Virus record (IMG/VR): IMGVR_UViG_3300025416_000002
Span: 1-64,000 of that record
DNA: 64,000 bases
Source of the DNA: a virus
Lineage: Duplodnaviria > Caudoviricetes
Reading direction: 5' to 3' (one strand)
In this document: positions 936-41,930 of the stretch, in pieces
How the letters are laid out: every line of letters starts with the position of its first letter
Numbering within the stretch: position 1 is the first letter of the stretch
Program-made: the position numbers and the translations under genes
Notes under the pieces: model-generated
Seen by the model: the letters and a program-made list of their open reading frames with translations, nothing else
Told to the model about the DNA's origin: nothing
The model's database searches: none

Positions 936-1694
936 ATGAACATCGCAGAAGGTAAAGGCCCAAAGCAAACAAAGAAGACATGGCCACTTGGCCAATTTGT
1001 TACCAATTACGGTAATGATGGAACACCAGGTGCCCTCTATCCTCCTGCTGTAGCATATGGGCAGTCTTTTACTAGCAGCGGTGTCGGTTATATGACCACT
1101 AGCGGCAATGTCGCTTATGCACAACCTGGATCAGTAAACCCAGGTCTCAACTTGAATGTAAACGGCAATGGCACGTTTGACGTTAGTATTCCTTGCGCTA
1201 TTGACCCTGCCACAGCCCTAACAGACCTGCAGGCAATCGTTGCTGTACTCAACGCTGAAGGTGGATGGTCGGGAACTGCTACTGTGTCTCTCCAAGGTAC
1301 TGCTAATCACTTCTTACCAAATGCTTACTTCACCAGTGCTTCTGGTTTGGCAACTTCTGCTAACTGGGCAACTATTGGAACAGCAACAATTTCAGCTGCC
1401 ACTTCTCCTGTAGTTATCACAGTACCTGTTGCTAGTGGTTACTTCTACCCTTCATACCGACTCATAGCCTCAGGTACTGGCACCGGTGTAATCGACTGGG
1501 TTCTCCCAGGTCTGTTCATTGACCTGTTCACTGCAGGAATTGGCCAGGAAGCTACATGGGCTAATGGCAATATTGGTCAGCAGAACATTGCTAATGGTAA
1601 GAACCTCACGATTTCTGGTGGTGTCGTTACTGGAGATAGCACGATTACTTCACCGAATTCAAGTGTAGACAATAACCACAACTACTTCGGCTAA
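936..1694 (+). CDS. Putative virion structural protein, S/T/G/N-rich
   Basis: AGGAG SD before ATG; low-charge beta-type composition with several SG motifs. Confidence 0.65.
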   Translation: MNIAEGKGPKQTKKTWPLGQFVTNYGNDGTPGALYPPAVAYGQSFTSSGVGYMTTSGNVAYAQPGSVNPGLNLNVNGNGTFDVSIPCAIDPATALTDLQAIVAVLNAEGGWSGTATVSLQGTANHFLPNAYFTSASGLATSANWATIGTATISAATSPVVITVPVASGYFYPSYRLIASGTGTGVIDWVLPGLFIDLFTAGIGQEATWANGNIGQQNIANGKNLTISGGVVTGDSTITSPNSSVDNNHNYFG

Positions 1695-1706
1695 TAAAGG
1701 ATTGAC

Positions 1707-1895
1707 ATGGAAAGACAACAGAATATAAGATTGGCACGTACACGTCACGTAGGCGCTAACTTCGATTTCAATGGCAACCCTATCATTCAGAATGAATCTG
1801 GTGGTACGGTTAGACTAAGTGGTCCCATTAGCACATACCCATGTGGCCACCAAGCAATTCCAGGCATTGACAACTGCAGTTGCACAACATATTAG
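1707..1895 (+). CDS. Small hypothetical protein (62 aa)
   Basis: AAAGGA SD; fills the gap before the portal gene. Confidence 0.55.
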   Translation: MERQQNIRLARTRHVGANFDFNGNPIIQNESGGTVRLSGPISTYPCGHQAIPGIDNCSCTTY

Positions 1896-4896: not shown

Positions 4897-5291
4897 TGGC
4901 AAGGACATTCAGACACCCTATTACGGGCGATCCTATTGGCATTGGTAAACACGTTTCTTGGAAGATCCAGTTCTCTATCCGCAACTGGTATTTCATTGGA
5001 GCCATTACTGGCGTGACATTGTTCTGTGTTATATGGGGAACAATGAACATCGCCGTAATTGGCTGGTGGAATGTATGGGCTTCGTACATGGCTCTGTTCA
5101 TTGAATCTGTCGTTGGTATCAGTATGTTTGAGCAGACTCGAGCAGATGCCAAGGTTCTCAGACAAAGCCTTGCAGCTATTGAAGAATTGCTTACCAAGAT
5201 CAACCAACTACTTGAGCTCGAGAAAGAGCAGAGCAAAGAAGTACACAGTCTGGTCGATGTCTTGGAAGACGAGATCAACCTTCACCACTAA
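4896..5291 (+). CDS. Two-TM membrane protein with C-terminal coiled coil (DUF1003-like architecture)
   Basis: Two hydrophobic segments followed by a Leu/Glu heptad helix; TAATG coupling. Confidence 0.65.
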   Translation: MARTFRHPITGDPIGIGKHVSWKIQFSIRNWYFIGAITGVTLFCVIWGTMNIAVIGWWNVWASYMALFIESVVGISMFEQTRADAKVLRQSLAAIEELLTKINQLLELEKEQSKEVHSLVDVLEDEINLHH

Positions 5292-8067: not shown

Positions 8068-8586
8068 ATGCTTCAATTGAATAGCATTGCTAACGTTGGG
8101 GTTCACCGCACGTGCACTCCATTGTACGAGAAGTACGAGGCTACACCCTACAACACGTTCCTGGACCCCACGGACACCAACAACATCTACTCGGGTATGG
8201 TCATGTACCGTACCGGTGCAGACACTGTTTCCCTGGCTACAGTAACGGGTACGAACTACGCAAACGCTAAGCCGTTTGGTCTTTCGGCTCTGGACCGTAA
8301 CCCCAACATCGATGACGTGACTCAGGTCGGTGTCAACGCTTGGGCTGTATGGCTTGGTAACTCCAACGCCTTCTTCACAATTACGGCTCCTGCCTTCGAC
8401 ACAACTCAGGCTTACAACATCTCGACAAGCGGTACTCGTCAGTTCCTGTACACCTGCTCAGGTACTGGTCAGCTCACCTCGGCCTCTGGTGCAAACATCA
8501 ACGGCGTTCCAGTTGCTGAATTGATTGACGTTATCAGCCCAACGCAGATCACTGTCCGTCTCGTACCTTACGGCGCTGCCGCTTAA
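8068..8586 (+). CDS. Putative capsid decoration (cement) protein
   Basis: 172 aa with AAGGAG SD, immediately before the major capsid gene. Confidence 0.65.
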   Translation: MLQLNSIANVGVHRTCTPLYEKYEATPYNTFLDPTDTNNIYSGMVMYRTGADTVSLATVTGTNYANAKPFGLSALDRNPNIDDVTQVGVNAWAVWLGNSNAFFTITAPAFDTTQAYNISTSGTRQFLYTCSGTGQLTSASGANINGVPVAELIDVISPTQITVRLVPYGAAA

Positions 8587-10665: not shown

Positions 10666-10666
10666 C

Positions 10667-12107: not shown

Positions 12108-15100
12108 ATGGCTTACCCCACATATACAACTCCTAGATCAATCGCTGGCGCAGCTGCACCTTCTTACCTCTCTGCAACGCTTGCTAGTGGGTACTCTGCT
12201 GGTCAAACAATTACAGTTGGCAATACATCTGGCTGGTATGAGGTAAGCTCGAGTGGCACTACTACAACAAACCCATTGGGAACTAGTGGTGTATTTACGT
12301 TGGTGGTTGATTATGGTCTCAGCACAGAAGAGAAAATTCTGTGTGCATCAGGTGCAATTTCTATTGGTGCAAACTCAGTAATCTATGTGTGGACCGATGG
12401 CATAAACAATGGTCGTGGCTGGGATGGTACAGCGTCAGTTGCTCACGCTGTTGGCAGTGGCACAAATCCTAATGTATTCCTCGTTAGAACTGCAGTAGAT
12501 GACCTTCAGTTCAATACATCAGCGGCCACACTAACCAATAACCTTGCTACTCTTTCGGGTCAATATGTGGTTACTTCCGGAGTCGTTACAGCTCAAGCTG
12601 GTTATATTTCTACGATCTCAGGCAAGCAAGTAACTGATGAAGCAAATATTGCCAGTTTGTCAGGTAGTTTAGCTACTCTCAGTGGACAATATGTAACAAC
12701 TAGCGGGATTGTAACCAGCCACACTGGGTCAATTGCAAGCATCAGCGGTAGCCTTAATACTTTGTCAGGTCAATATGTTGCCACCTCTGGTAGCCTCACA
12801 ACACTTTCGGGGCAATTTGTTGCTTTAAGTGGTTCATACACTGCTACATCTGGAAGCCTCAACACTGTCAGTGGAGTTGCTTACTCTGCTTTGCAACGAT
12901 CAGGTGGCACTATCAGCGGTGCATTGAACATCACCAGCCCCATCATTGGTGGTGTTACCGCTACTAGCGGACAATCTCTTGTATGGAACAACACACAATG
13001 GGTGCCAGCAACGGTTAGTGGCGGCGGTGGAGGGATCACTTCTCTTACCGGTGACGTAACTGCAACTGGCACAGGTGCAGTAGCTGCAACACTTGTAGGA
13101 ACCACTGCTGTTAGTGGTGTAGTCAATACCATAATCAACGTTAACTCAACGGTGACAGGTACAGTTGCAAATCTTGCTACTCTTAGTGGACAATTTGTTA
13201 CACTTAGCGGTGCTTATGCGACCACATCAGGTAATCTAAACACTGTAAGCGGTGTTGCTTATGCTGCTTTGCCAGGATCCGGTGGAACCATCAGTGGTAA
13301 CCTTGTAGTTGCTTCTGGTCTTACTGTTAGTGGAACTATAAGTGGAACTACTGCTGTTTTTAGTGGTGGCGTAACAGCACAGTACTTATCAGTAAGTGGC
13401 ATCCCAGGTTCTACGTCTGGTTCTAGATTCGTGGGTGCTATTTCAACTGGTATTAGTGGCATACCTTACGGTCCTAATTCTGGTACTTATACCGTAGGCG
13501 ATTTTGTAACTGACCAAGCAGGTAAAATCTGGGTCTGCTATAGTGGCGGCACTCCTGGTCTTTGGACTACGACACTTTACAGTCTTCCTATCTATAGAAC
13601 CTATAGAGGTGGTGTAGGCGCAGCAAATAATGCTAATGGTGTAAGTATCCCAACGACAGGATCGGGACTCTTGTTAGCACCCAATGAGCAAACTATTTTG
13701 CAAATTGGTAATACACAGGGTAATGGAGTTACCTGGACATTACCTTTTAACCCTTCAAATGGTAGCATTAATACTTTTATTAATAGTAGCAATGGTTACT
13801 ATACATATCTTTTGCCATCTGGTACGGATACAATTAATGTAAATAACACTGTTTATTCTGGTACTAGTAGCCCAGGTTTGTACATTGGTCCTGGTGCTTG
13901 GTACCAGTTTAGCTATGATGCTTTTGGACAGGGCAGTGGAAAAGGTGTTTGGTTTGCATTCTCCAGCAACCAGGCTCAATATTTATCTGGTAATTTTTCC
14001 AACGTTACAGTTACAGGCACTCTAAACGCTATTGGCCCTACGAATACATTAAGTGGGACAAATAATTTATTTGGTACAACAACTATTAGTGGTAGTTACG
14101 CTTTTTACCCTGCGTTATCAGGTACACCTACAGGAGCTGCAGGCGGTGATCTTACAGGTACTTACCCTAACCCAACGTTAGTTGGAACCACAAATGTAAG
14201 CGGAATTGTTAACACTATTATCAATGTTAACTCAACGGTGACAGGTACCGCTGCTAGCTTAACTACGCTAAGTGGTCAGTATGTTGCCACTTCCGGTAGC
14301 CTTACAACGCTAAGCGGTCAGTTTGTAGTGTTAAGTGGGGCATACACAGCGACTTCAGGATCTTTGAACACCGTTAGTGGTGTAGCTTATGCTGCCCTGC
14401 CAGGATCCGGTGGAACTATTAGTGGTAACCTTGTTGTTGCTTCTGGTCTTACCGTTAGTGGCAATATTGCTTCTAGTGGTACATTCTCACTTGGCCAAAC
14501 CAGTTCACTAAACATTGTTCCTTTTGGACAAATTTACGCTCCAATCTCTTTTGGTCCAAGCTACGCTTTAATGTATAATAATGCCGGTGGTTACTTCCAG
14601 AGCACTCTACCGAGCGTTGCATTTAGTACATGGGCGTCTTTAACCAACAATGCAACTCTTGGTGGTAACTTTACCGTAGCAAGTAATCTTACTGTATCTG
14701 GCGTGTCTACTCACATTGGCAACGCTACATTTAGTGGAACTGTAACCATTGGTGGTAATAGCGTAATGACAAGTGGTTATACCGCTGGCGGTGACCTTTC
14801 AGGTGCTTACCCCAACCCAACCGTTGCTGCTATTCAGGGTAAGAGCATCAGCACGACGCAGGCAACGCTTTTGTCGCAGATGAGCAACATCGTCACGCAC
14901 AACACCGCGAGCAACCCCACCGTCACGGCTGGTGAGTTCTCGGTAGTTCCCTCGTCGGGCGTTACGGGTGCGCTCACCCTCACCCTGCCCTCGGCTCCGG
15001 CAAACGGAACCATCAACTACATCTTCAACCAGAACGTCACCTACTCCATCACCCTTGCCGCAGGTGGCACGGACAAAATCCAAAACGGCGCGAGCAGTGT

Positions 15101-16565
15101 CTCGTCATTGTCGCTGGCCTTCCTCTATTCGACCTGCTACACCGTCGAGTATTACAACGGCTTTTGGTACGCCGTCGCTGGCCCCTTCAGTGGCATCACG
15201 GGAACCGGCTCGTTGGTTTATGCTGGTGGTCCTTCAATCTCAACGCCAACGCTAACTCAACCAACAATCGCAGGCTCTGCTTCGTTTTTAGCAACAACTA
15301 ACACAGCCTCGGTTTTGGCCGCTGCTGTTCCCGCCACTCTTGCGAACGGCAACGGTCCAGTTTATATTTACACGGCGAACCCAACCGCTTCGTATCCAAT
15401 ATTGATGACCACATATCGCACTGGCTCGGCTCAATACTCTAGCACCGCAACACTTCAAGTCAACAATGGTGCGACCGCTTACTTGCCATCCTCAATCACC
15501 ATTGACGGATACCAACTTGCCGCATCTGGTTCCACGCCAAGTCTTCCTACTAACGGTCAAACATCGCCCACCTATACGGTTACGGCGGCCACGGGTAACG
15601 GAACTACCGTCACCTACACCTGCGCCAACTCACTTACCGTAGGAACCATTGTCTCAATCACGGGTCTTGGCATCGCTACGGGTTCTTCGCTCAACCTAAC
15701 GAGCGTGACCGTCGCATCCGCTAACTCTACGCAGTTCACGGTCACGAACACCACGGTAGGTACTTCAAGCGGAACAGGAACGGCAACGCCAGTACGTTCT
15801 TTTACTACCTATTACCAAGGTGGAACTCAGTGGGCTTCGGCAGACCCCAGCACATGGGCTACTTATACAATTACAGTAATCAATACAGCAGCGAACAACT
15901 CAGTTGTCTTCCTCTCTAAAACGGCTGCTGGGGCAGGATTGCCAATTACACAGGGTGGAACAGGATCAACCACTGCTATCTCTGGGTTTAACAACCTTGC
16001 TATCTCTGGTGGTACTGTTGGTGGCAACCTGGTAGCTGCTTCTGGTCTTACCGTATCTGGTGCTTTAACGCAAATTGGCAATGCTTCGTTTAGTGGTACA
16101 CTCACTGTAGCTAGTGCTATTATCAACCCTATTCTTCAGGGTGCTTATGAAGTTGTATCATACAGTGGATCAACAGTGCTTAGCGGAACAGCTACTCCAG
16201 CTACGCTTAATGCAGCAAACAGCTCTTTCTACTTCTATAATACAGCACCATCTGGTTCATATACAGTAGCAATCACCGGAGCACCAACCGTATCTGGTGT
16301 AAGTGCCACTTTTGCTTTGCTTGTAAATAATGGTTCTACGGCTTATCTGCCCAGCAACGTTACCATTAATGGTAATCAGGCGGGTGCAAGTAGCTCAGCA
16401 CTCCCATTGCAGGGCGCAACAAACAATGGTATTACTACGTACTACCAAGGTGGTACAGCATGGTCATCAGCCGATGCCAACACTCTTGATTCTTATACGT
16501 TTACTGTGATTTGCACGTCAAACACGCCTACTTGGACACTGTTAGCAGGATTGACAAAGTTCTAA
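12108..16565 (+). CDS. Large fibre/adhesin-like virion protein (1485 aa) with SG heptad repeats and mosaic modules
   Basis: S/T/G-rich; two GGDL(T/S)GxYPNPT motifs; internal duplications; duplicated C-terminal TTYYQGGT.W.SAD domain. Confidence 0.8.
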   Translation: MAYPTYTTPRSIAGAAAPSYLSATLASGYSAGQTITVGNTSGWYEVSSSGTTTTNPLGTSGVFTLVVDYGLSTEEKILCASGAISIGANSVIYVWTDGINNGRGWDGTASVAHAVGSGTNPNVFLVRTAVDDLQFNTSAATLTNNLATLSGQYVVTSGVVTAQAGYISTISGKQVTDEANIASLSGSLATLSGQYVTTSGIVTSHTGSIASISGSLNTLSGQYVATSGSLTTLSGQFVALSGSYTATSGSLNTVSGVAYSALQRSGGTISGALNITSPIIGGVTATSGQSLVWNNTQWVPATVSGGGGGITSLTGDVTATGTGAVAATLVGTTAVSGVVNTIINVNSTVTGTVANLATLSGQFVTLSGAYATTSGNLNTVSGVAYAALPGSGGTISGNLVVASGLTVSGTISGTTAVFSGGVTAQYLSVSGIPGSTSGSRFVGAISTGISGIPYGPNSGTYTVGDFVTDQAGKIWVCYSGGTPGLWTTTLYSLPIYRTYRGGVGAANNANGVSIPTTGSGLLLAPNEQTILQIGNTQGNGVTWTLPFNPSNGSINTFINSSNGYYTYLLPSGTDTINVNNTVYSGTSSPGLYIGPGAWYQFSYDAFGQGSGKGVWFAFSSNQAQYLSGNFSNVTVTGTLNAIGPTNTLSGTNNLFGTTTISGSYAFYPALSGTPTGAAGGDLTGTYPNPTLVGTTNVSGIVNTIINVNSTVTGTAASLTTLSGQYVATSGSLTTLSGQFVVLSGAYTATSGSLNTVSGVAYAALPGSGGTISGNLVVASGLTVSGNIASSGTFSLGQTSSLNIVPFGQIYAPISFGPSYALMYNNAGGYFQSTLPSVAFSTWASLTNNATLGGNFTVASNLTVSGVSTHIGNATFSGTVTIGGNSVMTSGYTAGGDLSGAYPNPTVAAIQGKSISTTQATLLSQMSNIVTHNTASNPTVTAGEFSVVPSSGVTGALTLTLPSAPANGTINYIFNQNVTYSITLAAGGTDKIQNGASSVSSLSLAFLYSTCYTVEYYNGFWYAVAGPFSGITGTGSLVYAGGPSISTPTLTQPTIAGSASFLATTNTASVLAAAVPATLANGNGPVYIYTANPTASYPILMTTYRTGSAQYSSTATLQVNNGATAYLPSSITIDGYQLAASGSTPSLPTNGQTSPTYTVTAATGNGTTVTYTCANSLTVGTIVSITGLGIATGSSLNLTSVTVASANSTQFTVTNTTVGTSSGTGTATPVRSFTTYYQGGTQWASADPSTWATYTITVINTAANNSVVFLSKTAAGAGLPITQGGTGSTTAISGFNNLAISGGTVGGNLVAASGLTVSGALTQIGNASFSGTLTVASAIINPILQGAYEVVSYSGSTVLSGTATPATLNAANSSFYFYNTAPSGSYTVAITGAPTVSGVSATFALLVNNGSTAYLPSNVTINGNQAGASSSALPLQGATNNGITTYYQGGTAWSSADANTLDSYTFTVICTSNTPTWTLLAGLTKF

Positions 16566-30630: not shown

Positions 30631-33374
30631 TGAGTTACAACAAGTCAGGTACTTTTACATACACACCAGACATCAGCTGTGTGATTAACACGATGAACAA
30701 CGGTGTTATTGACGTATCCAATGACATTATTAACTTCTCAGTTACTCGCAACATGAACGCAGTAAGTACTTTTACTGCTACCTTGGCGAACTCAAATCGT
30801 AAGTACAACCGCGTAATTAATACAATGGATCGAGTCACTGTGTTCCTTAAGCGTACACAGTATGTACAGGTATTTACTGGGTATATCACATACGCTCCAA
30901 TTGAGACGTTGGTGCCTACGCCCATTATGATCAACGCATCTTGCACGCTATACCAGCTGCAATCAATCTATTGGGACGACACACTGCTTCAGTACCAGCA
31001 GCTGTTGCTCAACTACATGGACAGCACCGCTTCAAGTAGTGACCAGACATTGAACGATGGTGGTATTTCTCAGGTGATCGTCAACCTATTGACCACTGTA
31101 GCTGGTTGGGATGTCAGCCGACTTCATGTCGCTCCTGTTCCGCAGAAGTTCTTGGAGCTTGCTGCAACCGTAGCTCAGAACCAAGATCTTTACGCGAGTA
31201 CGCTTAACCAAGCTGCCGTTGACAACATCGCAGCCATTGTTGGTATTGACAACATCACTAGTGGTCAAAGCATTTCTTCGCGCAAGTACAAGTACGGAAG
31301 CACCCAGACCGTAAACGACTCATCAGCACCAGATGGTGGTGTGGGCACTGCTTTCTCCGTATCGAGAGCCGTTGCGCTAACCACAGCACCTATCAATGGC
31401 CAGAACAAGAAGTATTTCCCTGGTCCTAATACTCTCAATCCAGTAGATAACAACAAGATCGACCAAGACATTTACTACTGCTCTTTGCCATTCTCGTTTA
31501 TCACTAACACAGATCCTAACATTGTTACCGATGCAAAGGATTGGATTGCTAGCAACCCGTACAATCCCAATGGAAGCAAGTCAAATGGTCGCCTACTTAT
31601 TCTGACCAACGATAAGACGAGCCGTGTTGTAGTCCTACGGGCAACCAGCATCACCCAAAAGGTTGACAAGCAAGGCAACTTAGTCTATCAGAATGGCTAT
31701 GCAGTACCTGACCCATCAGTCAACTACGCACAATGCCACCCAGGTGTAGTCGCCTATCTGAATGGTGATGTCAGCGATCCTACTCAATGGACGGGCAAAG
31801 GCTCTTCCAATATGTCTTTCATTAAGATCGCATGGGTAGACCAGACTCAAGTCTCTTCTCCTGGTCCTCAGAATGTGATCGAGAATTCCACGAAAACCAA
31901 TGCTGACTCTTACTTGGGTATTAACCAGCAGAGCAATGCGAACTCCAACGTACTTACAAGCGTGGCCTCTCAGCTTGTCAGCATCCTGGAAAGCCAGGAA
32001 GGTGCAATGTACTGGGATGGTGCACCGGGTTATGGTAAAGGATTCTCTAGAGAAACTCCGAACAACATCTATACCCATACCGGTGGTTGGTTCGACTGCT
32101 CTAGTTTAATGCAATGGGCTTATCGACAGATCGGTATCCCAATTGGGTCAACCACCTATACACAGTATGGCCTTGGTCCCGACTACCCACCAAACGGCAA
32201 CTCTGTATGCGGTGCATGGATCCCAACCAACCAGATGCCCATCGTCGGTGACCTATTGTTCTGGGACGTACCATCTGACACTGGTGGACAGCCAGGTCAC
32301 GTCATGTGCCTCGTAGAGCCATTTGATCCAGTTACTGGCTGGGGAACGATTATCCAATCGTCAGCTCCAGGAAATCCAGTTGCTCTTGCTCAAATGAACT
32401 GGAAAGAAATGGTCAATGGTGGTAGCCCTAATGGCTGGTATATGACCTACATGGGTGCCCGTAGACCTCTCACGCTTCACCCAGGTTGGGGTCAGACAAC
32501 ACAACAGAACGTTACCGTACCTAGCACGTCATCCACTGCTGACTACAGCACAACTGAGACTTCTACGGTTCTTACGGATACCCAGGGTTGGAACACAATC
32601 TGGACTTCTCCGAACTACAACATTACGGCGTCTACCATCCAGGGTACTCCACAGGCTTTTGCTCTTGATAACCCATTGATGCAAGACCTCGACCAAGTTA
32701 TCCAGGCTGGTTTGAGATCGTACATGAGCGCACCCAATGGCGACTTTGTTGCTTGGTTCCCAGACTGGTACGGCGTCTATGGCATGGACCCAGTAATGGA
32801 AATCTGTGACATCGAGATTATTGACTTCCAGATCTATCACGATGACACTGCACTAGTAACTCACGTAGCCATTATTGGTGACACGTCTGGTATTGGTACG
32901 TCGGTTAACCTAGTTGACTACATCACAACGCAAGGTATCGTTAGTATCCAGGACACGAGTACTATGCAGCTGCTGTTTGGTACTCTGAACAACTACGCCA
33001 CGACTGACCAGCAGAATGCACAGATTGCACTGAACTTCTTGAAGCGATACGGCGTACGACCCATGATGCAGGAGACTTCGGTGCTCCACAGCCACGCACT
33101 CGAGTACTTCTTTGCTCTCCAGCAGTTCATGCAGCAATGGGCCAACCAGTTTGTTAGCACCGTATACCTTACGTTTATGCCTGAGCTTTACCCAGGAATG
33201 AGAATCGTTATCAATATCGACAACGAAACTGGTGGTCAGGATCAGTACCAATTCTACTGCACGTCCGTGACACACAACGGTGACCGTAGTGGAGGATTTA
33301 CAACGCAGGCAACGTTGACTGCACCCATTAAGAATGGAATGGTCATGCACTACGGATTGGACTTTGTATCATGA
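30630..33374 (+). CDS. Baseplate hub protein with an inserted NlpC/P60 peptidase domain
   Basis: Hub-like termini; internal FDCSSLMQWAY...GDLLFW...GHV. Confidence 0.8.
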   Translation: MSYNKSGTFTYTPDISCVINTMNNGVIDVSNDIINFSVTRNMNAVSTFTATLANSNRKYNRVINTMDRVTVFLKRTQYVQVFTGYITYAPIETLVPTPIMINASCTLYQLQSIYWDDTLLQYQQLLLNYMDSTASSSDQTLNDGGISQVIVNLLTTVAGWDVSRLHVAPVPQKFLELAATVAQNQDLYASTLNQAAVDNIAAIVGIDNITSGQSISSRKYKYGSTQTVNDSSAPDGGVGTAFSVSRAVALTTAPINGQNKKYFPGPNTLNPVDNNKIDQDIYYCSLPFSFITNTDPNIVTDAKDWIASNPYNPNGSKSNGRLLILTNDKTSRVVVLRATSITQKVDKQGNLVYQNGYAVPDPSVNYAQCHPGVVAYLNGDVSDPTQWTGKGSSNMSFIKIAWVDQTQVSSPGPQNVIENSTKTNADSYLGINQQSNANSNVLTSVASQLVSILESQEGAMYWDGAPGYGKGFSRETPNNIYTHTGGWFDCSSLMQWAYRQIGIPIGSTTYTQYGLGPDYPPNGNSVCGAWIPTNQMPIVGDLLFWDVPSDTGGQPGHVMCLVEPFDPVTGWGTIIQSSAPGNPVALAQMNWKEMVNGGSPNGWYMTYMGARRPLTLHPGWGQTTQQNVTVPSTSSTADYSTTETSTVLTDTQGWNTIWTSPNYNITASTIQGTPQAFALDNPLMQDLDQVIQAGLRSYMSAPNGDFVAWFPDWYGVYGMDPVMEICDIEIIDFQIYHDDTALVTHVAIIGDTSGIGTSVNLVDYITTQGIVSIQDTSTMQLLFGTLNNYATTDQQNAQIALNFLKRYGVRPMMQETSVLHSHALEYFFALQQFMQQWANQFVSTVYLTFMPELYPGMRIVINIDNETGGQDQYQFYCTSVTHNGDRSGGFTTQATLTAPIKNGMVMHYGLDFVS

Positions 33375-34537
33375 CAATCCACAAGAAGGGTAGAACCCCT
33401 GCCACAAGAGTAGACAACAAGAACGGTGTTCGTAGGGTCGTACTTACCAGTGGCCCACAGCTGCACCCATTGAGCCTGGCTCAGAATGCCTCGAAGAACT
33501 ATTACTGCAATAGCTTCGACATGAACGGATTCCAGATCCAGATCGATCTTCAGGCACTGCCAGCGAATGTTACGATCGATCAGATTCAACCCAACCAGGT
33601 CTGGTGGGTAGAGAAGCGCACATCGTTGTACCGTCTGTATCTATACGGTGGCGTAATGGATCCAGTGACTCGAAAGATCAACAGTACAGAGCCTTTGGTT
33701 CCTTCGATAAGTACTTCCTTAAACAACGTAACGATCAGCGGCAACCTGACTATTAGTGGATCTATTAGCGGCGGAAGCACCGATGCATCATCACTCCGTG
33801 GCATCAACATTTCTACGTTAAGCCCAGGGAACGGCCAGGTTCTTCAGTACAACGCTGCTCAGAATCAATACATTCCGGCCACAGTTAGTGGGGGCGGTTC
33901 TTCCACCACAATACTGGACTCTGCACGTGGAACATTGCCTCCACAATACTGGGGGCCTTCAGGGACAAATGGTCCTTCGTACCAGACTTTTGACCCAATC
34001 ATGGCTGTCTCGCTTTATAACGTAGGCCAAGGTTCAACTGGCCAGACACCTTCTTTGTTGGTTTCTCCCAACATTTGGTGGAATGCTATCTACTTGCCAT
34101 CAGGCATATCGCCAAGCATGATCTACTATGCGATCACCGCTACTGGAACTTCTACGGCCAAACTTTATATGGCGCTTTACAACTCTGTTTCACAAATAGG
34201 CTACACCCCAGCACTTTCTGCAGGGCCGGTTGGCATGGCATCAGGCACTATGACCGCAACAAGTGCAGGCAGCTTGACCAGTATCTCTGGTGGCACTTAC
34301 TGGGTGGCTGTGGTGGCATCAGGAACAGGAACATTCCCTCAGTTGTTCGGCAACGCCGAGTATTCTTTCCCAAGCAACATAATGGGGCCAGCTCTTTCAA
34401 CCAGTAGCAAGCTGACAGTGCCTGCTGAATATATCACCGCGACAACATTGTCCGGTAAATTACCAACTTCGATGACATCAGTCACAACTGGTTTGTCATC
34501 TTCTACTGGTTCTTACTTTTGGTTTGGGGTCTCGTAA
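33371..34537 (+). CDS. Putative baseplate spike with C-terminal head domain
   Basis: Follows the hub gene; N-terminal beta domain, fibre linker GQVLQYN...PATVSGGG, S/T/G-rich tip. Confidence 0.55.
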   Translation: MTIHKKGRTPATRVDNKNGVRRVVLTSGPQLHPLSLAQNASKNYYCNSFDMNGFQIQIDLQALPANVTIDQIQPNQVWWVEKRTSLYRLYLYGGVMDPVTRKINSTEPLVPSISTSLNNVTISGNLTISGSISGGSTDASSLRGINISTLSPGNGQVLQYNAAQNQYIPATVSGGGSSTTILDSARGTLPPQYWGPSGTNGPSYQTFDPIMAVSLYNVGQGSTGQTPSLLVSPNIWWNAIYLPSGISPSMIYYAITATGTSTAKLYMALYNSVSQIGYTPALSAGPVGMASGTMTATSAGSLTSISGGTYWVAVVASGTGTFPQLFGNAEYSFPSNIMGPALSTSSKLTVPAEYITATTLSGKLPTSMTSVTTGLSSSTGSYFWFGVS

Positions 34538-34569: not shown

Positions 34570-35031
34570 ATGAAGACTCTTACAGTTAGCAACGGCGATC
34601 TTAATTTGAATGGCGGGAAACTTCAGTTCTCCTATGGTTCAAATAAACTAGCTCAAGACATTGCTCTGTGGCTTCAGGAGCCTCTTGGCACGGGATTTAC
34701 AACTCCAGCTTTTGGCAGTTTGCTACCAGGGATGGTCGGTACGTCTCAGGCCACCAACAGCGCTAGCAGTGTTGAAAACGAAATATTAAGAGTGTTACAG
34801 TTGTACCAGGGTCAGCAGATCATCAACTTGCAGCAGGCCCAGAACTCTGCCCAGCTTTCCATCTGGAACAAGAATGAAATCATTCAAAGCATCGTGTCTG
34901 TCCAAGCCAACGTAGACAGCACAAATGGTACCCAAATAAACGCGAACATCGTCATTCAGACGCTTACTGGGAACCTTGTTAACTTAATCGCATCGATCAA
35001 CAATAACGGAGTTAGTGTCCAAAATGGCTGA
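34570..35031 (+). CDS. Baseplate wedge subunit (gp25-like)
   Basis: 153 aa before baseplate J; LAQDIALWLQEPLG...FGS pattern. Confidence 0.7.
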   Translation: MKTLTVSNGDLNLNGGKLQFSYGSNKLAQDIALWLQEPLGTGFTTPAFGSLLPGMVGTSQATNSASSVENEILRVLQLYQGQQIINLQQAQNSAQLSIWNKNEIIQSIVSVQANVDSTNGTQINANIVIQTLTGNLVNLIASINNNGVSVQNG

Positions 35032-37813
35032 TACATCAGGAGTACTCTCAAGACTGCAGGCTGCCTTATCGACTTTCGACCCTTCATGGGACGTTAGCGT
35101 AGGTAGTGCTACATACAAGATCCTTGAGTCAGTTGCTCAGGAAATTGCCAATTCCAACAATAACTCTACGCTACAGACTTATAGCTATGACATCAATACG
35201 AAGTCTGGCAGTGACCTTGATACGTTCTGTAACCTGTTCGGTGTATACCGCCAGCTTGGTAAGCGGGCCGTGGGCACCGTTACCTTTTACTGCAACACGG
35301 CAACAGCAAACATTGTCAACATCCCTCTTGGTACCCAGGTAGCTGTTCCGGTTGGTGGCAACTACACAGCACCAGTCTATTTCGCCACGACTGCCCCAGC
35401 CATTATCCCAATCGGTGCAACCCAGGTTAACGTGCCTGTTATTGCATCTCTGCCAGGTATCTACGGCAATGTATATGCCAACACCGTTACAGCTTTGGTC
35501 TCTACGCTCAATGGCGTTACCAGTGTTTCCAACCTGAACAACATGACTGGTGGAACTGACCCAGAGAGTGACGCTCAGCTTCGTAGCAGATGGCAGAACT
35601 CTGCTTTCAACAACACGACTGGTACCAACGGTAAGTACATCCTCACCGCTCTGCAGAATCCTAACGTTAGTATTGCCAATGCCATTGGTCTTCAACAGTT
35701 CTACACGGAACAACTCCCTGTTCAGGCAACCATTAGTGGTGGTACGACTAACTACGTAACGTTCCAGATGATCGCATATAGCGGTATGACCAACGTCATC
35801 AGCGGTACCACCTATAGCGGTACCAACGTAGTTACATTCAGCGGATTCCCCGCAAGCACCACAGGTACCACACTGGCAGCTGGTCTTCAGGCAATGATCA
35901 GCGGTGTTGCGCCTCAAAGCTACATTACTGTAACTGCAACCCCTACGGGCAACACCATCTCTGGTGGCCTTAACATCACGCTTGGTGCACCTAGCCCATA
36001 TCGTTTAACAATCGGTAGTGGTTCTGCTATTAACGGAGCTGGTGTAACTTCGAACGGAGCGGTTACCATCAGCGGTACCACATACACCGAATACATGCGA
36101 AGTCTTAATCAGGACATCGGTGCTTCAGGTACACCTACCTACAATGGTACATATAGTGGTTTTGTTTTCCCACAAGGCAATGAGCTTGTCGGTAGCAACA
36201 TCAACACCGCTAGCCAAACTGTTTACACACCGAACTCTGACTACTTCTACAACAGTGGTGGTACGATTACCGTTACCGGGACGTTCTCTCCACAGATCTA
36301 TTTGCAGATTGCTAACCCATCGTTCTACCCAAGCTTGTTCATCGGTAACACCGTTCAGTTGATTTCCGAATACAACCCAGCGTCTAGCCGAGCAGCCACC
36401 ATTACCAGTGGTAACTACGTTGACATCTTTATCAATGGCACCACTGCTGCCGTAGCCACTGAACAATCAGCATTCAACACGGCATTTACGCTCTCCTCAG
36501 GCAACACAAGCAACCGTTTCCAGAACACTCTGAACTACGTTCTCGGTAGTGGCTCTGTGGCTGCTTCAAACACGAACACATCTGGTGACTACTACGTACC
36601 ATTCGATCGTCAGCCGATGATCAACTTCCCTGCGCAGGTTAGCACTGCATCTAGCGGTGTAGCAGACACAGTATTCCTGTATAACGCCGTCTCTAACAGT
36701 GGGTACACATACCCAATTGCCTTGAATAAGTACGGTTACATTAGTGTTACGGGCACTGTAAGTCCGACATCGTTTATGTACTCCTACTCTGCACCGATTG
36801 TTACTGGTGGCACAGTCAGTGGTGGATACAGCTCACCGTACATTGTGTTCAGCGGTACATCTGCGTTTATTTCTGGCAATGCTTTCCCAGGCACTGTCGT
36901 TGTTGTCACTGGTGCATCAAACAACAGTTATAACGGTACTTTCACGGTGGTTAGCGCGACCAACACGACCTTCTCGGTACAGGTTTTGGCAAACCCAGGA
37001 ACTCTTACGGGGAATGCTACAGCATCGCTGGATAACAGCAATGGTGTCACCCTTAGCGGTAGCACCATCTCTGGTGTCAACTTCGTTGCAATCAACAATG
37101 CTAGTTCGTTCCTATACCCAGGACTTGCTTTGTCAAACAGCAACACTGCGACTGGCATCCTGTCGCCTGGACAGAACTACTGGATCCAGAGTGTTTCTAC
37201 CAGTGGTGTCTACCTTAACGCCAATGTCAACAACAGTGGAACCCTGACCACGAGCGGTAAAGCTCTCGTTTACCCACTCTATGACATCACCAACACTAGT
37301 GCTAACAGTGTTTTGTCTATGAACGGCCTTGCTTTTGATGCCACTACGCCACCCTCTGGTTGGCCAACTCTCCCCGCTTCAGGTAGCTCATGGGTACAAT
37401 ACACCCACAACTTCAACAATGATGTTGTAGATGTCGAGTCGTTGATCCAGCAGAGTAGACCAATCGGTGTGAACACCTTGACCCACCAAGCTAGCTACCA
37501 GCCATTGTCGATCGCTTTGAGAATCGTGTTGGCACCTGGATATAGCCTTACAACCGTTCAATCGAACATTACCAACCAGCTCAACCAGTACTTCTCTGGA
37601 TTTAATTTCCTTGCGATCCTGTCCTTTGCTAGCTTGCAATCACAGATCCTCGGCGTATCTGGTGTTGCCAATGCCAAGGTTACTGGCGTAAGCATCGTTG
37701 CGCTTGATGGCACAACGATAAGCACATACACGAACGACTTCGTGCTGGGTAGCAACCAGCTGCCAGTTCTTAGCAACATCAAGTACACAGTCGTAGGAAC
37801 GAGTACGTTCTAA
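35024..37813 (+). CDS. Baseplate J-like protein with large SG-rich insertions
   Basis: LDTFCNLFGVYR...AVGTVTF and GGTDPESDAQLRSR motifs. Confidence 0.85.
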   Translation: MADTSGVLSRLQAALSTFDPSWDVSVGSATYKILESVAQEIANSNNNSTLQTYSYDINTKSGSDLDTFCNLFGVYRQLGKRAVGTVTFYCNTATANIVNIPLGTQVAVPVGGNYTAPVYFATTAPAIIPIGATQVNVPVIASLPGIYGNVYANTVTALVSTLNGVTSVSNLNNMTGGTDPESDAQLRSRWQNSAFNNTTGTNGKYILTALQNPNVSIANAIGLQQFYTEQLPVQATISGGTTNYVTFQMIAYSGMTNVISGTTYSGTNVVTFSGFPASTTGTTLAAGLQAMISGVAPQSYITVTATPTGNTISGGLNITLGAPSPYRLTIGSGSAINGAGVTSNGAVTISGTTYTEYMRSLNQDIGASGTPTYNGTYSGFVFPQGNELVGSNINTASQTVYTPNSDYFYNSGGTITVTGTFSPQIYLQIANPSFYPSLFIGNTVQLISEYNPASSRAATITSGNYVDIFINGTTAAVATEQSAFNTAFTLSSGNTSNRFQNTLNYVLGSGSVAASNTNTSGDYYVPFDRQPMINFPAQVSTASSGVADTVFLYNAVSNSGYTYPIALNKYGYISVTGTVSPTSFMYSYSAPIVTGGTVSGGYSSPYIVFSGTSAFISGNAFPGTVVVVTGASNNSYNGTFTVVSATNTTFSVQVLANPGTLTGNATASLDNSNGVTLSGSTISGVNFVAINNASSFLYPGLALSNSNTATGILSPGQNYWIQSVSTSGVYLNANVNNSGTLTTSGKALVYPLYDITNTSANSVLSMNGLAFDATTPPSGWPTLPASGSSWVQYTHNFNNDVVDVESLIQQSRPIGVNTLTHQASYQPLSIALRIVLAPGYSLTTVQSNITNQLNQYFSGFNFLAILSFASLQSQILGVSGVANAKVTGVSIVALDGTTISTYTNDFVLGSNQLPVLSNIKYTVVGTSTF

Positions 37814-38775
37814 TGTCAGGCAATATGTTCTCGATCTCGCCCAACTCTACGCTGGCGAGCAAGGTTGCTAACTTCCCAGAGGATGTTTATAACTTTAACG
37901 AGGGCGACAACCTTACTAACTTGATGACCATCCTGCTGGGTAACAGCGGTACTGGCCAGCTCAAGAACATTCAGACCGTTGCACGTCTTGGGCAAGAGAT
38001 CATTGAGTACAGCAACCTAGACAACATCCTGGGTCAGATCTTCAACATCCAGCGTACATCATCTGAGATTTACAGTTTTTCTACGAACCCCTTCATTGAT
38101 CAGCTTCAGCAAACTCAGTGGCAAGAGATCGTTCGCAAAGACGCTAGCTACCGAGAGCGTCTCCTTGGTGCTGCCGAAGCTTTCCAGAATGGTGCTACCC
38201 TTTGGGCAATTGTCACTCTATGCGAAGCACTGTCTGGTCTTAAGTTCTATGTAACTGAAAGCTGGAGAACACCTAACTTAGGTAGACAAGCGATCAATCC
38301 TGGCCAAGAGGTTGTGCTCATTCCCATTAGCGACGGTATATACTTCAATTGGGATCAGAGCAAGGCACAGCAAATCCTCAACGTTATCAACAACGTCGTA
38401 GCTTCGAATTTTGTAATCAGTTTTAGTGCAGTAAGAAACACTTTGACGCCAGTTCCTTTGAGCGCAGCAACAGTATCCGGATCTGAACCTGCAGGATACT
38501 CGGAGTATTTCTACCTTCAGCCCACTGTTACTGCCAATGGTATCTACACGCCAGCCAACATCCCACCAGGTGCAGGAACTCGTTACTGGCTAGTCAACAA
38601 CCAGAAGACACCGGCACCTTATTTCTCTCACCTCCAAACACAGGAAGCGGTTATCGACTTGACTGGGAATATTTCTAGCGTTACCTGTACAGATACTAAC
38701 GGCGATGGAGCACCTAGCAATAGCGTTGCCCAGCCCACACTACAAGTTACTGCGACTCTTTACGGTGCACAATAA
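37813..38775 (+). CDS. Baseplate wedge protein
   Basis: Follows J; YRERL...GATLWAI pattern. Confidence 0.65.
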   Translation: MSGNMFSISPNSTLASKVANFPEDVYNFNEGDNLTNLMTILLGNSGTGQLKNIQTVARLGQEIIEYSNLDNILGQIFNIQRTSSEIYSFSTNPFIDQLQQTQWQEIVRKDASYRERLLGAAEAFQNGATLWAIVTLCEALSGLKFYVTESWRTPNLGRQAINPGQEVVLIPISDGIYFNWDQSKAQQILNVINNVVASNFVISFSAVRNTLTPVPLSAATVSGSEPAGYSEYFYLQPTVTANGIYTPANIPPGAGTRYWLVNNQKTPAPYFSHLQTQEAVIDLTGNISSVTCTDTNGDGAPSNSVAQPTLQVTATLYGAQ

Positions 38776-41700
38776 TGTCTATCATTCCTAACAACATCGA
38801 CCCATTACAGGAATATGTTTCTGGTGGCATTTACCCACCACTAACTGTAGATGGCCTTGTCTACAACAAGGTGTATGCACAGACCGGTGTTATCGACGTA
38901 CTGTCTAATACTCAGAAGACTGGTTACACAGACCCAAGCACCAATGTAATTAACGGCAACAACAACAGCATCGTGTTCGGACAGAACCAGGAAACGTCTT
39001 GGATCTCGAGTGCTCAATTCGGTGGCCCTGGAAGCATCTCTGTTGTGCTTACCTACAACTTCAACACCACTTCTTACTATAACTACGTTAGCCTTGACGT
39101 CCTTAACGTTCCATGCTTCGTAGAGCTGGGCTACATTATCAACGGTAATTGGAATGCCCTCCCAGGTGCATCTACGTTTGTGATCAATGGTGGCAACAAC
39201 ATCTACACACAATCTGACTTCTTGCTTCTGCAGTATCAAGCACCATCAACGCAGGGAAGCCCCAATCTATCTGTTCGCATTACGAGAAACCAAAACGTTC
39301 AATCGATCAGCAATGGCATCCCAACCAACATCGCTTATTCAGTCGGTGTACAGAACGTGACTGTACGACTGCAAGTTCTGCAATCCTCCGATGTCCCATC
39401 AGGCGTTTTAAAAAATGCGAGTGGCATCATTACCCAGAATCGACTGGGATTTATTGAGAACTACTCTTACCAGAATTACCCTGTAAGCAATGCTTTCAAT
39501 ACGGGCACCAATTACTGGAAGAGTGCGCCACAACCGACTGCCGACTCTGTTGTTTACTTCTATGCAAAGATCAACGACACTACGGCGACATCGATCAACC
39601 GCCTCTACATTGATCCGCTTTACAGTACAAGCCGTTTCAATATTTACTTTACAACCAACACAACTTCTGGTGGCCTTATTGATCCAGATACGTTTACCTG
39701 GACGCCAATCCAAAGAGACTTCATACTTAGGAAGGGTCTCTACGATCTACCAACTGTAAGCGCCACATATCTTAAGTTCGAGTTCGTACAACTTGTGCCA
39801 GAAGCGTACGACTTGCCAATTGATTCCGTAACGAGAACCATCAACGTGTTCCCAGCTGACGTGGAAGACTACTACTACCAGCTAGAGAGCATGATCCTAG
39901 ACGGGGATTCTACGCAATATTCTTACATTGGCAACAACATCAACCCTCAGACAGCAACGACAACCAGCCTTAACGCTTCCACGCTGTTCGGTCTTTCGTC
40001 CAACACAGTTGCCAATGCTAACACCTGGCCGAGCCTTTCAGCTTTGAATGCTTCTCAGTATGGCAACTCAACAACAGTCGCTCTCAATACGAACTCATAT
40101 ATCATTGACCCAACAATGAGCTACAAGACCATTGACAACAATGGTAATTACAACGGTGTCGCTTACAATCAGTTCCTTCAGCGTCGATTCCCCAACGCAA
40201 GAACGCACGCATACACGCAGATCACACTCGAGCAGAACTGGCATGAAGCTTACTTCACCGGTATTCAGTATCTGACTGCCTTCTACGAGCAACAATACGA
40301 CGACATTCGCAGTACGCCAACGAACCTTTACGCTACGAATGGCACTACGTCTGGATTCAATTCTCAAAATGTCAACTACGTAGGTCTTCAACCAGACGAT
40401 ATCGCAACTACGAGCTGGTACCCAACCATCGATTCATTCAAGAGCTTCAACATTGGCGCTATAACAAGCGACTGGAACAGTTTCTTGAGCGATAGCCAGG
40501 TCTTGATGAATAGCTCATCTGTCCTGCAGAATACTTACAACTGTACAGCGAGCGCGGTAGGTAATTTCGGCAATAGCACTATCGTGTCAGTACAACAACT
40601 TACACATGGTACGCCTTACAACATTAGATCTGGCAGCTACCAGACCTCAACCAATGAGATTTCTTACACCGACGCCAACTTCCTTACCCTAACAAGCTGG
40701 TCAGGTCTTGGTGGCACAACCATCACTGGAACACTTGTCTCATGGGCATCTGGCACCAACAATGGCACGGCAAGTGGACTAAGCGTAAGCGGTGGTACGT
40801 ACTCTGCTGCCTATAACTTCACAATCCCTGGTGTAGTCGCTAGCGGTACAACTCCATGGGAAGTCCAGCTTGCTGTTCCTGCTTATGGTGTAGTGGGTCT
40901 TGGTTCTTACGTGCCATCTATCTCCGGTAACTCCGGAGCAATCAACTACTACTTCTACACTGGTGTACAGGTATCCGGTACTGCTGCTGGAATTTCAAAT
41001 GTTAATGGTTCCATTAGCGGTAGCACGAGATTTGTTAACCCAACTACTGGTGCAGCAATCTCTGGGACCACGGTAACAGGAACAACTGCAAACTTCGTAA
41101 GTGGAACTAGCAGCAACCTAGGCTATGTAACCAGCACAAACTACACGACTAGTGGGTATCCATCTAACACAATCCAGTTCGTCGTTAGCGGTAGTGGTAC
41201 TGGAGCATATGACCTTTACCAACTCGGTGTTTTCCCAACTCCAACGACTCAATGGGTGTCTCCGCAGGACCGTAAGTACATGCGTGTATCGGGTGTTGCG
41301 AGAATCTTCCTGCCATTTACTGACCTGGGTACATACAGAATTAGCTTATTTGCTACTAGCAGTACTGGTGTTCTCACTGAGCTGGTATACAAGCAATTTA
41401 ACCCAGGGTACATTCCCCTCAACACATGGTTCGATGTAGAGCTCGAGACGTTTACCGGAGACAACTACACGCAGTTCTACGTAGAAGTCCAGCAGGTTAA
41501 CGGAACTATCAACGAGGTGTTCTACGTAGCAATGCTTTCGCCGTTCTACCACCCAGTACGTTTTGAGTACACGACGATAAGTGGATCTACGTACCCGAAT
41601 AACTACCAGTTCATCACTGGTCCTATCGGTAACTCAGATTACTTTGTAAGTACCATCTCTGGTTTACCAGCAAGTGGTATCCAGCTGAGAATGACTTCGC

Positions 41701-41930
41701 TTGATCCGAATATCTTCATATCAGGAGTCAGTGTCGTACCTTACTACAAGCAGTCTCCATACTATGCCGAACTGAATATTGACTACATCGGTGTAAGTAA
41801 AACCAACGAGGTTAGTGTACGCAGAGCAGTAGAGAATAAGCCGTACTTCCAGAACAACACAGGTATTTACCCATCACGTTTTGGTATTCCTACTGTAGTT
41901 GGACCAAACGTTGGGTACGTCGTCGGTTGA
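38775..41930 (+). CDS. Large baseplate/peripheral wedge protein (1051 aa)
   Basis: Last gene of the structural block; multiple beta-sandwich-like segments. Confidence 0.7.
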   Translation: MSIIPNNIDPLQEYVSGGIYPPLTVDGLVYNKVYAQTGVIDVLSNTQKTGYTDPSTNVINGNNNSIVFGQNQETSWISSAQFGGPGSISVVLTYNFNTTSYYNYVSLDVLNVPCFVELGYIINGNWNALPGASTFVINGGNNIYTQSDFLLLQYQAPSTQGSPNLSVRITRNQNVQSISNGIPTNIAYSVGVQNVTVRLQVLQSSDVPSGVLKNASGIITQNRLGFIENYSYQNYPVSNAFNTGTNYWKSAPQPTADSVVYFYAKINDTTATSINRLYIDPLYSTSRFNIYFTTNTTSGGLIDPDTFTWTPIQRDFILRKGLYDLPTVSATYLKFEFVQLVPEAYDLPIDSVTRTINVFPADVEDYYYQLESMILDGDSTQYSYIGNNINPQTATTTSLNASTLFGLSSNTVANANTWPSLSALNASQYGNSTTVALNTNSYIIDPTMSYKTIDNNGNYNGVAYNQFLQRRFPNARTHAYTQITLEQNWHEAYFTGIQYLTAFYEQQYDDIRSTPTNLYATNGTTSGFNSQNVNYVGLQPDDIATTSWYPTIDSFKSFNIGAITSDWNSFLSDSQVLMNSSSVLQNTYNCTASAVGNFGNSTIVSVQQLTHGTPYNIRSGSYQTSTNEISYTDANFLTLTSWSGLGGTTITGTLVSWASGTNNGTASGLSVSGGTYSAAYNFTIPGVVASGTTPWEVQLAVPAYGVVGLGSYVPSISGNSGAINYYFYTGVQVSGTAAGISNVNGSISGSTRFVNPTTGAAISGTTVTGTTANFVSGTSSNLGYVTSTNYTTSGYPSNTIQFVVSGSGTGAYDLYQLGVFPTPTTQWVSPQDRKYMRVSGVARIFLPFTDLGTYRISLFATSSTGVLTELVYKQFNPGYIPLNTWFDVELETFTGDNYTQFYVEVQQVNGTINEVFYVAMLSPFYHPVRFEYTTISGSTYPNNYQFITGPIGNSDYFVSTISGLPASGIQLRMTSLDPNIFISGVSVVPYYKQSPYYAELNIDYIGVSKTNEVSVRRAVENKPYFQNNTGIYPSRFGIPTVVGPNVGYVVG

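Follow-up and report, generated by a model that had tools for sequence, protein, structure and literature searches.

To our knowledge, the glycosylation of phage virions has so far been shown only on the C-terminal tails of capsid and tube proteins of a few mycobacteriophages. In Che8, Corndog, and Myrna, virion proteins are reportedly O-glycosylated by phage glycosyltransferases on the C-terminal ends of capsid and tube. The capsid of chloroviruses, which infect eukaryotes, is glycosylated by virus-encoded glycosyltransferases at non-canonical sequons, with N-linked glycans on one capsid protein. The Ser-Gly xylosylation of eukaryotic proteoglycans needs nearby acidic residues and a GT14 xylosyltransferase. 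Another system is that of TibC and AAH (BAHT family), cytoplasmic enzymes of the GT-B fold that heptosylate many serines in the beta-rich repeat loops of TibA and AIDA-I; for example, TibC modifies Ser313 in the N-S-G-G of TibA, and it modifies serines, not threonines (PMC4358343). The present text deals with the dipeptide Ser-Gly (SG) in the virion proteins of an uncultured phage of freshwater actinobacteria, and with a GT4 glycosyltransferase encoded in the same DNA. The phage is represented by the IMG/VR record IMGVR_UViG_3300025416_000002, which is 80.5 kb long and about 54% complete, and the window, i.e., the whole stretch of DNA analyzed, is the first 64 kb (64,000 nucleotides) of that record.

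Overall, SG occurs at about three times the chance frequency in the outer tail, baseplate, fibre, and decoration proteins. Expected counts and z scores were derived from within-protein shuffles, by which composition is controlled, and all 400 dipeptides were ranked. The SG-bearing virion proteins are the following (aa, amino acids; GS, Gly-Ser; ORF, open reading frame).

12108..16565, plus strand: tail fibre, 1485 aa; 76 SG, 26 GS, 29 T-x-S-G
35015..37813, plus strand: baseplate J, a gp6-like wedge protein carrying an insert of some 570 aa; 28 of 32 SG in aa 236-800
38775..41930, plus strand: minor tail protein, Myrna gp138-like (phrog_2840); 16 of 25 SG in aa 601-850
22639..24447, plus strand: tail sheath (phrog_2839, Phage_sheath_1C); 12 SG, all in aa 1-338
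936..1694, plus strand: virion-module protein without family match, 252 aa; 7 SG, 1 GS, z 2.7
8068..8586, plus strand: capsid cement (decoration) protein (Pfam Phage_cement_3, E 4e-33); 4 SG, 0 GS, z 3.5
10384-10665, plus strand: small ORF upstream of the fibre, without family match, 93 aa; 5 SG
10667-11389, plus strand: small ORF upstream of the fibre, without family match; 8 SG, 1 GS
11495-12100, plus strand: small ORF upstream of the fibre, without family match; 9 SG, 2 GS
24946..25944, plus strand: protein 3' of the tube, 332 aa; 8 SG, 2 GS
33371..34537, plus strand: baseplate-region protein, 388 aa; 11 SG, 6 GS

The 76 SG of the fibre stand against 26.5 expected (z 11), a count that was reached in none of 500 shuffles. 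Likewise, baseplate J has 32 SG and 10 GS with 11.0 SG expected (z 7), the 1051-aa minor tail protein has 25 SG and 8 GS (z 5.7), and the remaining virion proteins, when pooled, have 129 SG against 82 expected (z 5.7). In each of the three large proteins as well as in the pool, SG ranks first among the 400 dipeptides. An earlier sequence-only reading of this DNA had counted SG and GS by hand, and every one of its counts is exactly reproduced; the excess of the ordered pair that it suspected holds in the virion proteins against both GS and shuffles, and so do the clusters it named in smaller ORFs, including the five SG of the 93-aa ORF. Non-structural proteins carry SG at expectation (23 against 25, z -0.5), SG is not above expectation in the rest of the record (64-80 kb), and GS, TG, and AG show no enrichment by within-protein shuffles. 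Glycines are preceded by serine in 38% of cases in the fibre, 36% in baseplate J, and 28% in the 1051-aa protein, against 5% in the non-structural proteins and 6% in control phages. Serine is also the only residue that is raised before glycine (2.9-fold), the corresponding values being 1.1 for N, 0.87 for G, 0.87 for T, and 0.61 for A. About half of the fibre SG lie within duplicated heptad arrays and hence do not count as independent sites; outside the heptads, the enrichment of the fibre persists (32 SG against 16.4 expected, z 4.5).

The fuller form of the motif is Thr-x-Ser-Gly, or [TS]-[AVILT]-S-G. T-x-S-G is enriched 6- to 7-fold in the three large proteins and 3.4-fold in the other virion proteins, against 0.8-fold in the non-structural ones. 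Since T-x-T-G, T-x-G-S, and T-x-S followed by a residue other than glycine are not comparably enriched, the glycine is a part of the signal. The dipeptide is encoded by 22 codon pairs in which all six serine codons are used; hence the signal acts at the protein level, and a cause at the level of DNA or codons is ruled out.

Only lineage-specific or outer parts of the proteins carry the excess: aa 1-338 of the sheath, the insert of baseplate J (236-800), aa 601-850 of the 1051-aa protein, the shaft of the fibre, the cement protein, and a number of small ORFs. No excess is seen in the cores of the sheath and of baseplate J, the tube, the hub, the portal, and the distal 490 aa of the fibre (residues 796-1285; 8 SG against 6.8 expected). 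As the sequence-only reading had stated, the 12 SG of the sheath are limited to its outer, N-terminal domains with none in the conserved C-terminal core (residues 351-602), the tube (24456-24929) has none, and the capsid protein (8525-9619) has two. The motif is biased to the virion surface. The SG-rich regions of different proteins show no homology to each other by hhalign or blastp (best hhalign probability 12%), and a single SG-rich domain copied into many proteins was rejected on these searches. Judged from sequence, T-x-S-G is a selected, lineage-specific surface motif in at least 10 virion proteins without detectable mutual homology.

The earlier reading had offered a generic beta-turn preference as its only alternative. 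Myrna, Pupper, and T4 have homologues of the sheath, baseplate J, fibre, and minor tail proteins in which both SG and GS occur at about expectation (tail, baseplate, and fibre totals of SG/GS are 49/64, 84/71, and 62/63, respectively, with no protein above z 2.1), and therefore a generic turn bias of tail proteins is rejected. The highest SG z among 124 control ORFs of at least 300 aa is 3.9. The SG-rich proteins also differ from these homologues in charge: the share of D, E, K, and R is 2.9% in the fibre, 3.8% in the sheath, and 5.5% in baseplate J, compared with 17-24% in the Myrna, Pupper, and T4 proteins. Across the SG-rich proteins the share is 2.9-9%, with S, T, N, and G contributing 40-50%, and the SG ratio is correlated with charged-residue depletion (Spearman -0.62). 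Charge depletion alone does not account for the motif, as only serine rises before glycine and some charge-poor proteins are not enriched. The protein at 16511-17413, which overlaps the end of the fibre gene, is charge-poor and Gly-rich (78 G in 300 aa) and has 8 SG against 10 expected; likewise, the charge-poor protein at 18331-19821 is not strongly enriched.

The signal is retained among relatives. IMG/VR holds at least 30 related contigs with sheath identities of 51-74%, compared with only about 25% to the sheaths of Myrna, Pupper, and E3. All 48 homologues of baseplate J are SG-enriched (z 3.8-9.7) with about 24 SG sites in the consensus, sheath orthologues show z of 2-5 with 12 SG columns common to at least half of 15 sequences, and the orthologues of the 1051-aa protein show z of 3.9-6.8. 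Similarly, nine SG columns are kept among 16 orthologues of the protein at 24946..25944, and one orthologue of the protein at 33371..34537, with 611 aa, has 29 SG and 8 GS. Column sharing is 0.33 for SG against 0.11-0.24 for other dipeptides, except Gly-Thr (0.26-0.33). Switches of serine codon class (AGY to TCN or the reverse) are seen in 20 of 30 conserved SG columns against 19 of 47 other conserved serine columns, which argues for selection on the serine itself. The sheaths of Myrna and Pupper keep the glycine at about five of eight alignable SG sites, preceded by K, Q, D, G, P, A, or N. As these distant homologues keep the glycine without the serine, serine seems to have been placed ahead of turn glycines that already existed in the sheath. 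In a subclade with 37% identity, baseplate J has 15-19 SG, of which only 2-3 lie in main-clade columns, the alignment being weak there. A scan of viral contigs found none for the most distant baseplate J homologue (P0048).

The second component is the block of sugar genes, in which the sequence-only reading had listed three glycosyltransferases, an epimerase, and a methyltransferase (44365-49133). Pfam and PHROGs bear out the first four; the methyltransferase has a match, albeit a weak one that falls below the cut-off.

44365..44919, plus strand: accessory GT2-like glycosyltransferase (Pfam Glycos_transf_2, phrog_14775)
44958..46247, plus strand: core GT4 glycosyltransferase of GT-B fold (Glycos_transf_1 PF00534, 35.4 bits against a cut-off of 26.4)
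46229-46900, plus strand: third glycosyltransferase (phrog_14945, E 4e-55)
46902-47453, plus strand: methyltransferase-like gene (Methyltransf_23, E 0.0025, below cut-off)
47455-48267, plus strand: ORF without family match in the accessory island
48264-49133, plus strand: nucleoside-diphosphate-sugar epimerase (Pfam Epimerase, E 6.5e-31)

Upstream of the GT4 gene are those for the SNF2 helicase and WhiB, and the GT4 product matches phrog_2170 over residues 13-414 (E 1e-43) besides the profiles Glycos_transf_1, Glyco_trans_1_4, and GT4-conflict. The N-terminal match to Glyco_transf_4 (20.2 bits) is below its cut-off of 28.5 bits, and the two-domain layout of GT-B enzymes is present. The gene is found in 22 of 30 related contigs with 64-81% identity, is missing only from short fragments, and is more conserved across the clade than the sheath or baseplate J. 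Matches of this GT4 subfamily number 136 among viral contigs against 3 in 185,579 species genomes, and all three of the latter are contigs of metagenome-assembled genomes (MAGs), one of which is identical to a viral record; on these sequence matches, the subfamily is almost restricted to phages. The closest solved relatives are MshA, BshA, and chlorovirus B736L, all of them weak (E about 1e-3); PDB 3oy2 is a viral GT4 of the B736L type. No GT14-type enzyme was seen in the family searches of the sugar genes.

The genes around the GT4 are far less constant. A homologue of the GT2-like gene is found in none of eight relatives examined, and the genes of the island at 46229..49133, except the matchless ORF, recur only in the relative G001, which has most of the island. 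The island downstream of the GT4 is hypervariable (window and L044-L051), and several relatives have nothing between the GT4 and the next conserved gene. Another relative, G023 (L046:5214-11379), carries at the same place GT25-like, GT10 fucosyltransferase, DUF6165, and GDP-mannose-dehydratase-like genes. G004 and other relatives have the GT4 and no island and are equally SG-rich. The expectation that SG enrichment follows the whole glycan cassette did not hold, because the five other cassette genes are missing in equally SG-rich relatives examined, and tracking of the full six-gene cassette was discarded since most of these relatives are without the island.

There is no member of the clade without the GT4, so the comparison of SG with the GT4 rests on other lineages. 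For each lineage, the observed SG count was divided by the expected one in the large S/G-rich proteins, a comparison that is not phylogenetically controlled. Records with a GT4 homologue have ratios of 2.74 (G031), 1.88 (G032), 1.89 (G033), 1.78 (G034), 1.46 (Tetrasphaera phage TJE1), and 1.26 (G035), against 1.13 in Myrna, 1.16 in Pupper, 1.04 in T4, and 1.27 in Che8, which lack it; for GS, most of these records lie close to expectation (0.37-1.22). By lineage, the excess is strong in one GT4 carrier, moderate in three, and weak in two, and 27 of 28 pairwise comparisons are in the expected direction when kinship is ignored. These ratios are suggestive of a partial tracking of GT4 homologues by the SG excess across other lineages. 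In G031, for example, an 889-aa protein that is unrelated carries 27 SG, compared with an expectation of 7.5, and their context is again [TS]-[VAIT]-S-G-T. This protein (L092:16461-19130, family unassigned) lies 3' of the portal and a MuF-like gene on a 36-kb viral record; its 27 SG fall in an approximately threefold internal repeat of [TS]-x-S-G-T, and the GT4 of the record is 49% identical to that of the window. L140, a contig assigned by binning to a Patescibacteria MAG, has an identical copy of a 21-kb sequence of L092. In TJE1 (L043 5388-10731), a sugar block directly upstream of the terminase genes comprises a nucleotidyl transferase, a guanylate kinase, an epimerase, a methyltransferase, a hypothetical gene, and a GT4 that shares 38% identity with that of the window; the SG excess of TJE1 is weak (48 against 36.8 expected).

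The interpretation put forward by the sequence-only reading survives in part. The enrichment is real, specific to serine and to the order of the pair, and located on the outer virion; the parts that likened it to proteoglycans and to mycobacteriophages or tied it to the cassette do not stand. With a probability of roughly 40%, the SG serines would be acceptor loops for a cytoplasmic serine O-glycosylation of virion proteins, for which the core GT4 is the candidate enzyme. This phage-restricted GT4 might, as a tentative proposal, read Thr-x-Ser-Gly at exposed strand ends and so glycosylate the sheath surface, the baseplate periphery, the fibre shaft, and the cement protein. It is conceivable, with somewhat less than even odds, that a sugar coat would thereby arise on the almost charge-free virion surface of abundant freshwater actinophages. 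In such a scheme, at least ten virion proteins would have gained, on their exposed add-on domains, a serine immediately ahead of glycines at turns or strand ends, the core GT4 (44958-46247) would put the first sugar on these serines, and the variable island would extend it into a variable glycan, with the GT2, the third glycosyltransferase, the methyltransferase, and the epimerase in this phage and the GT25, the GT10 fucosyltransferase, and the dehydratase-like enzyme in the relative. The motif with its specificity, conservation, and surface bias is observed, as is the core GT4 next to a variable island; we infer the activity of the GT4 on protein, its use of SG serines as acceptors, and the resulting coat of glycan.

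The nearest analogy is with TibC and AAH, whose logic would be shared, as serine and not threonine is modified in loops of beta-helical adhesins. The SG motif is likewise Ser-specific and would sit at the turns and strand ends of surface proteins that are repetitive and rich in beta structure; the candidate enzyme, too, is a cytoplasmic GT-B protein. As for serine-only acceptor loops, TG is not enriched, and about one third of the SG lie at strand ends or turns in a model of moderate confidence. The differences are that the enzyme of the window matches GT4 profiles and not the heptosyltransferase family, and that many unrelated virion proteins are the proposed substrates, whereas TibC and AAH act on one partner encoded by an adjacent gene. 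No heptosyltransferase family was found among the Pfam matches of the GT4, and no TibC among its PDB sequence-search matches.

The likeness to mycobacteriophages is that the phage is also actinobacterial, has three glycosyltransferases of its own (44365, 44958, 46229), has virion proteins as the proposed targets, and would likewise bear a coat of glycans. In contrast to their C-terminal sites, the candidate sites here are internal T-x-S-G loops on the sheath, baseplate, fibres, and cement protein. Glycosylation of capsid and tube after the manner of mycobacteriophages, which the earlier reading cited as established, is not what the window offers: both proteins are SG-poor and have ordinary C-termini that are not Ser/Thr-rich, so Che8-type acceptor sites do not fit. 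In Che8 (L139), the capsid protein (5051-5872) and the major tail protein (7613-8422) end in G-S (...TGS and ...DGS), not in S-G. Neither Myrna nor Che8 has a homologue of the window GT4, and Myrna has no SG excess. With chloroviruses, the phage would share a virus-encoded, host-independent machinery including a methyltransferase and fucose-related enzymes, and its GT4 has a weak full-length similarity to B736L (E 0.0025, marginal); the difference is that the chlorovirus glycans are N-linked, on one capsid protein, and of a eukaryotic virus. The proteoglycan-like sequon proposed from the sequence is not borne out. The dipeptide and the serine acceptor are the same; the flanks of the SG in the window are Thr and aliphatic residues, and acidic residues within four positions on either side amount to 2.5% against a background of 6.9%.

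Several observations weigh against serine O-glycosylation by the GT4. The enzyme has no detectable similarity to known protein O-glycosyltransferases, and the GT4 carriers TJE1 and G035 (38% and 46% identical, respectively) have little SG excess. About half of the fibre SG belong to strict arrays of 7 or 14 residues, which grow and shrink by whole units, as is typical of a structural shaft repeat. In the AlphaFold2 (AF2) model of baseplate J, the SG other than those at strand ends and hairpins are in loops, with a few inside strands or a helix, and the distribution of the SG serines over DSSP classes is that of other serines. Within the clade, SG sites keep their position instead of turning over, and lost SG serines give way to fewer T and more N or G than is the case at other serines, which fits a conformational role. 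A general remodelling of the surface is a confounder, since the SG-rich proteins are almost uncharged. Finally, the phage is uncultured and without an isolate.

Nearly as likely is a purely structural role, in which SG would be a strand cap or beta-arc in charge-poor, Thr/Ser/Asn/Gly-rich beta-solenoid or beta-sandwich domains without any modification. In the fibre, it would form the corner of a 14-residue beta-roll or a heptad of a trimeric shaft, and the glycosyltransferases would serve the host envelope, superinfection exclusion, or DNA. The heptad or 14-residue SG arrays of the fibre (about aa 141-300, 356-440, 716-795, and 1286-1335) are periodic, the number of heptads differs among relatives in steps of 7 or 14 residues, the distal 490 aa of the fibre are unenriched, and the protein has a weak match to the beta-roll family LbR_Ice_bind (PF21300; 21.5 bits against a cut-off of 30). 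The variation of the shaft by whole heptads among close relatives suggests a variation in fibre length, and the motif G-D-L-[TS]-G-x-Y-P-N-P-T occurs twice in the protein, near aa 680 and aa 895. Structure prediction is of little use here (mean pLDDT, the predicted local distance difference test, of 30.8 in an AF2 model of aa 1-800); a PDB sequence search of the fibre gave nothing meaningful, and its neighbours in the protein atlas are weak, tail-fibre-like ones only.

The gene of baseplate J (Pfam Baseplate_J PF04865, E 3e-30) probably starts at the ATG at 35024, and the AF2 model of the protein (pLDDT 70.7) has a gp6-like core for which Foldseek returns the wedge proteins of phiCD508, phi812, Mu, and A-1(L) (E 2e-10 to 1e-8); for the insert, Foldseek found no PDB matches. 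When the SG positions of this model are classed by DSSP, about a third lie at C-ends of strands or in two-residue hairpins (e.g., 350, 683, 727, and 738), a predicted placement that agrees with a structural cap. The conserved position of the SG columns, the correlation with charge depletion, and the weak excess of TJE1 and G035 in spite of their GT4 are in line with it as well. Where SG is lost, glycine is retained more often than serine (60 against 25 cells), the serine being replaced by T (20%), N (15%), G (14%), or A (9%), and distant homologues retain the glycine. Glycosyltransferases of freshwater actinophages have been read in the literature as modifiers of DNA or the cell wall (PMC10202952). 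On the other hand, turn preferences should be universal, and the homologues in Myrna, Pupper, and T4 show none; only serine is raised before glycine and not other turn-compatible or uncharged residues; the excess extends over many proteins without detectable homology to each other; and the charge-poor proteins at 16511-17413 and 18331-19821 are not strongly enriched. A structural role also leaves unexplained the phage-restricted core GT4 beside a variable island.

As for DNA, the classical route of its glycosylation needs a dCMP or dUMP hydroxymethylase (ThyA-like). ThyA (PF00303) has no match in the 80.5-kb record or in four relatives that are 72-89% complete, all records being incomplete; for ThyX (PF02511), the record gives a single match, which lies below threshold (E 8.4e-4, 14.7 bits), and the four relatives give none. 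Classical DNA glycosylation via 5-hydroxymethyl-pyrimidines was thus set aside, as no ThyA/ThyX-type hydroxymethylase was found in these incomplete records.

An unlikely alternative is that ordered arrays of Thr and Ser hydroxyls (ladders of T-x-S-G on faces of beta-solenoids or beta-sheets) are functional without phage sugars, either as an uncharged adhesive surface that reversibly binds polysaccharide of the host or the environment or as targets of host modification such as O-mannosylation or phosphorylation. Being two residues apart (i and i+2), Thr and Ser would point to one face of a strand, in accordance with the 3- to 7-fold enrichment of T-x-S-G, and the proteins are nearly uncharged, rich in S, T, N, and G, and weakly similar to an ice-binding beta-roll; furthermore, the excess is independent of the accessory sugar genes. 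This alternative leaves unexplained why the glycine belongs to the signal, given that the related motifs without S-G are not comparably enriched, and why there is a partial association with GT4 homologues; neither a role in binding nor the action of a host enzyme has specific support. It is extremely improbable that the enrichment is an artefact, whether of composition, codon usage, internal duplication, or gene calling: the duplicated segments (e.g., aa 336-420 and 698-790) do inflate the count of the fibre, yet shuffles control composition, GS is at expectation, the codons are diverse, enrichment is present outside the repeats of the fibre and in at least nine further proteins, and the 48 baseplate J homologues and 15 sheath orthologues carry the signal, so that shuffles and orthologues together refute it.

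If serine O-glycosylation is true, abundant lake phages would modify their particles in a new way, by a sequon-directed coat on sheath, baseplate, and fibres, and the T-x-S-G excess together with the GT4 subfamily could serve as a predictor of glycosylated virions from metagenomes. It might also explain the hypervariable island, through an escape from recognition by hosts or grazers or through the colloidal stability of an uncharged particle. If the motif is purely structural, it would represent a lineage-specific rule, serine before a turn glycine in nearly uncharged tail proteins, that is useful for structure prediction and fibre engineering.

On its plus strand, the window has a contractile-tail virion module followed by the SNF2 helicase, WhiB, the sugar block, and replication genes. 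WhiB and the PHROG families in common with cluster-C mycobacteriophages point to an actinobacterial host. In addition to the SG-bearing proteins, among which the cement protein (8068), fibre (12108), sheath (22639), baseplate J (35015), and minor tail protein (38775) mark the order of the module, it includes the following genes (start positions).

1908, plus strand: portal
5359, plus strand: protease
8525, plus strand: capsid protein
16511, plus strand: Gly-rich protein
24456, plus strand: tube
25989, plus strand: chaperone
26926, plus strand: tape measure
30630, plus strand: hub

A promoter and terminator scan of 40000-51000 found sites no more numerous than in shuffles. The replication region further downstream encodes an HslV-like peptidase (phrog_1040; 51064-51618), a LuxC-like protein (53633-54682), and a phage Hfq-like protein (55236-55613).

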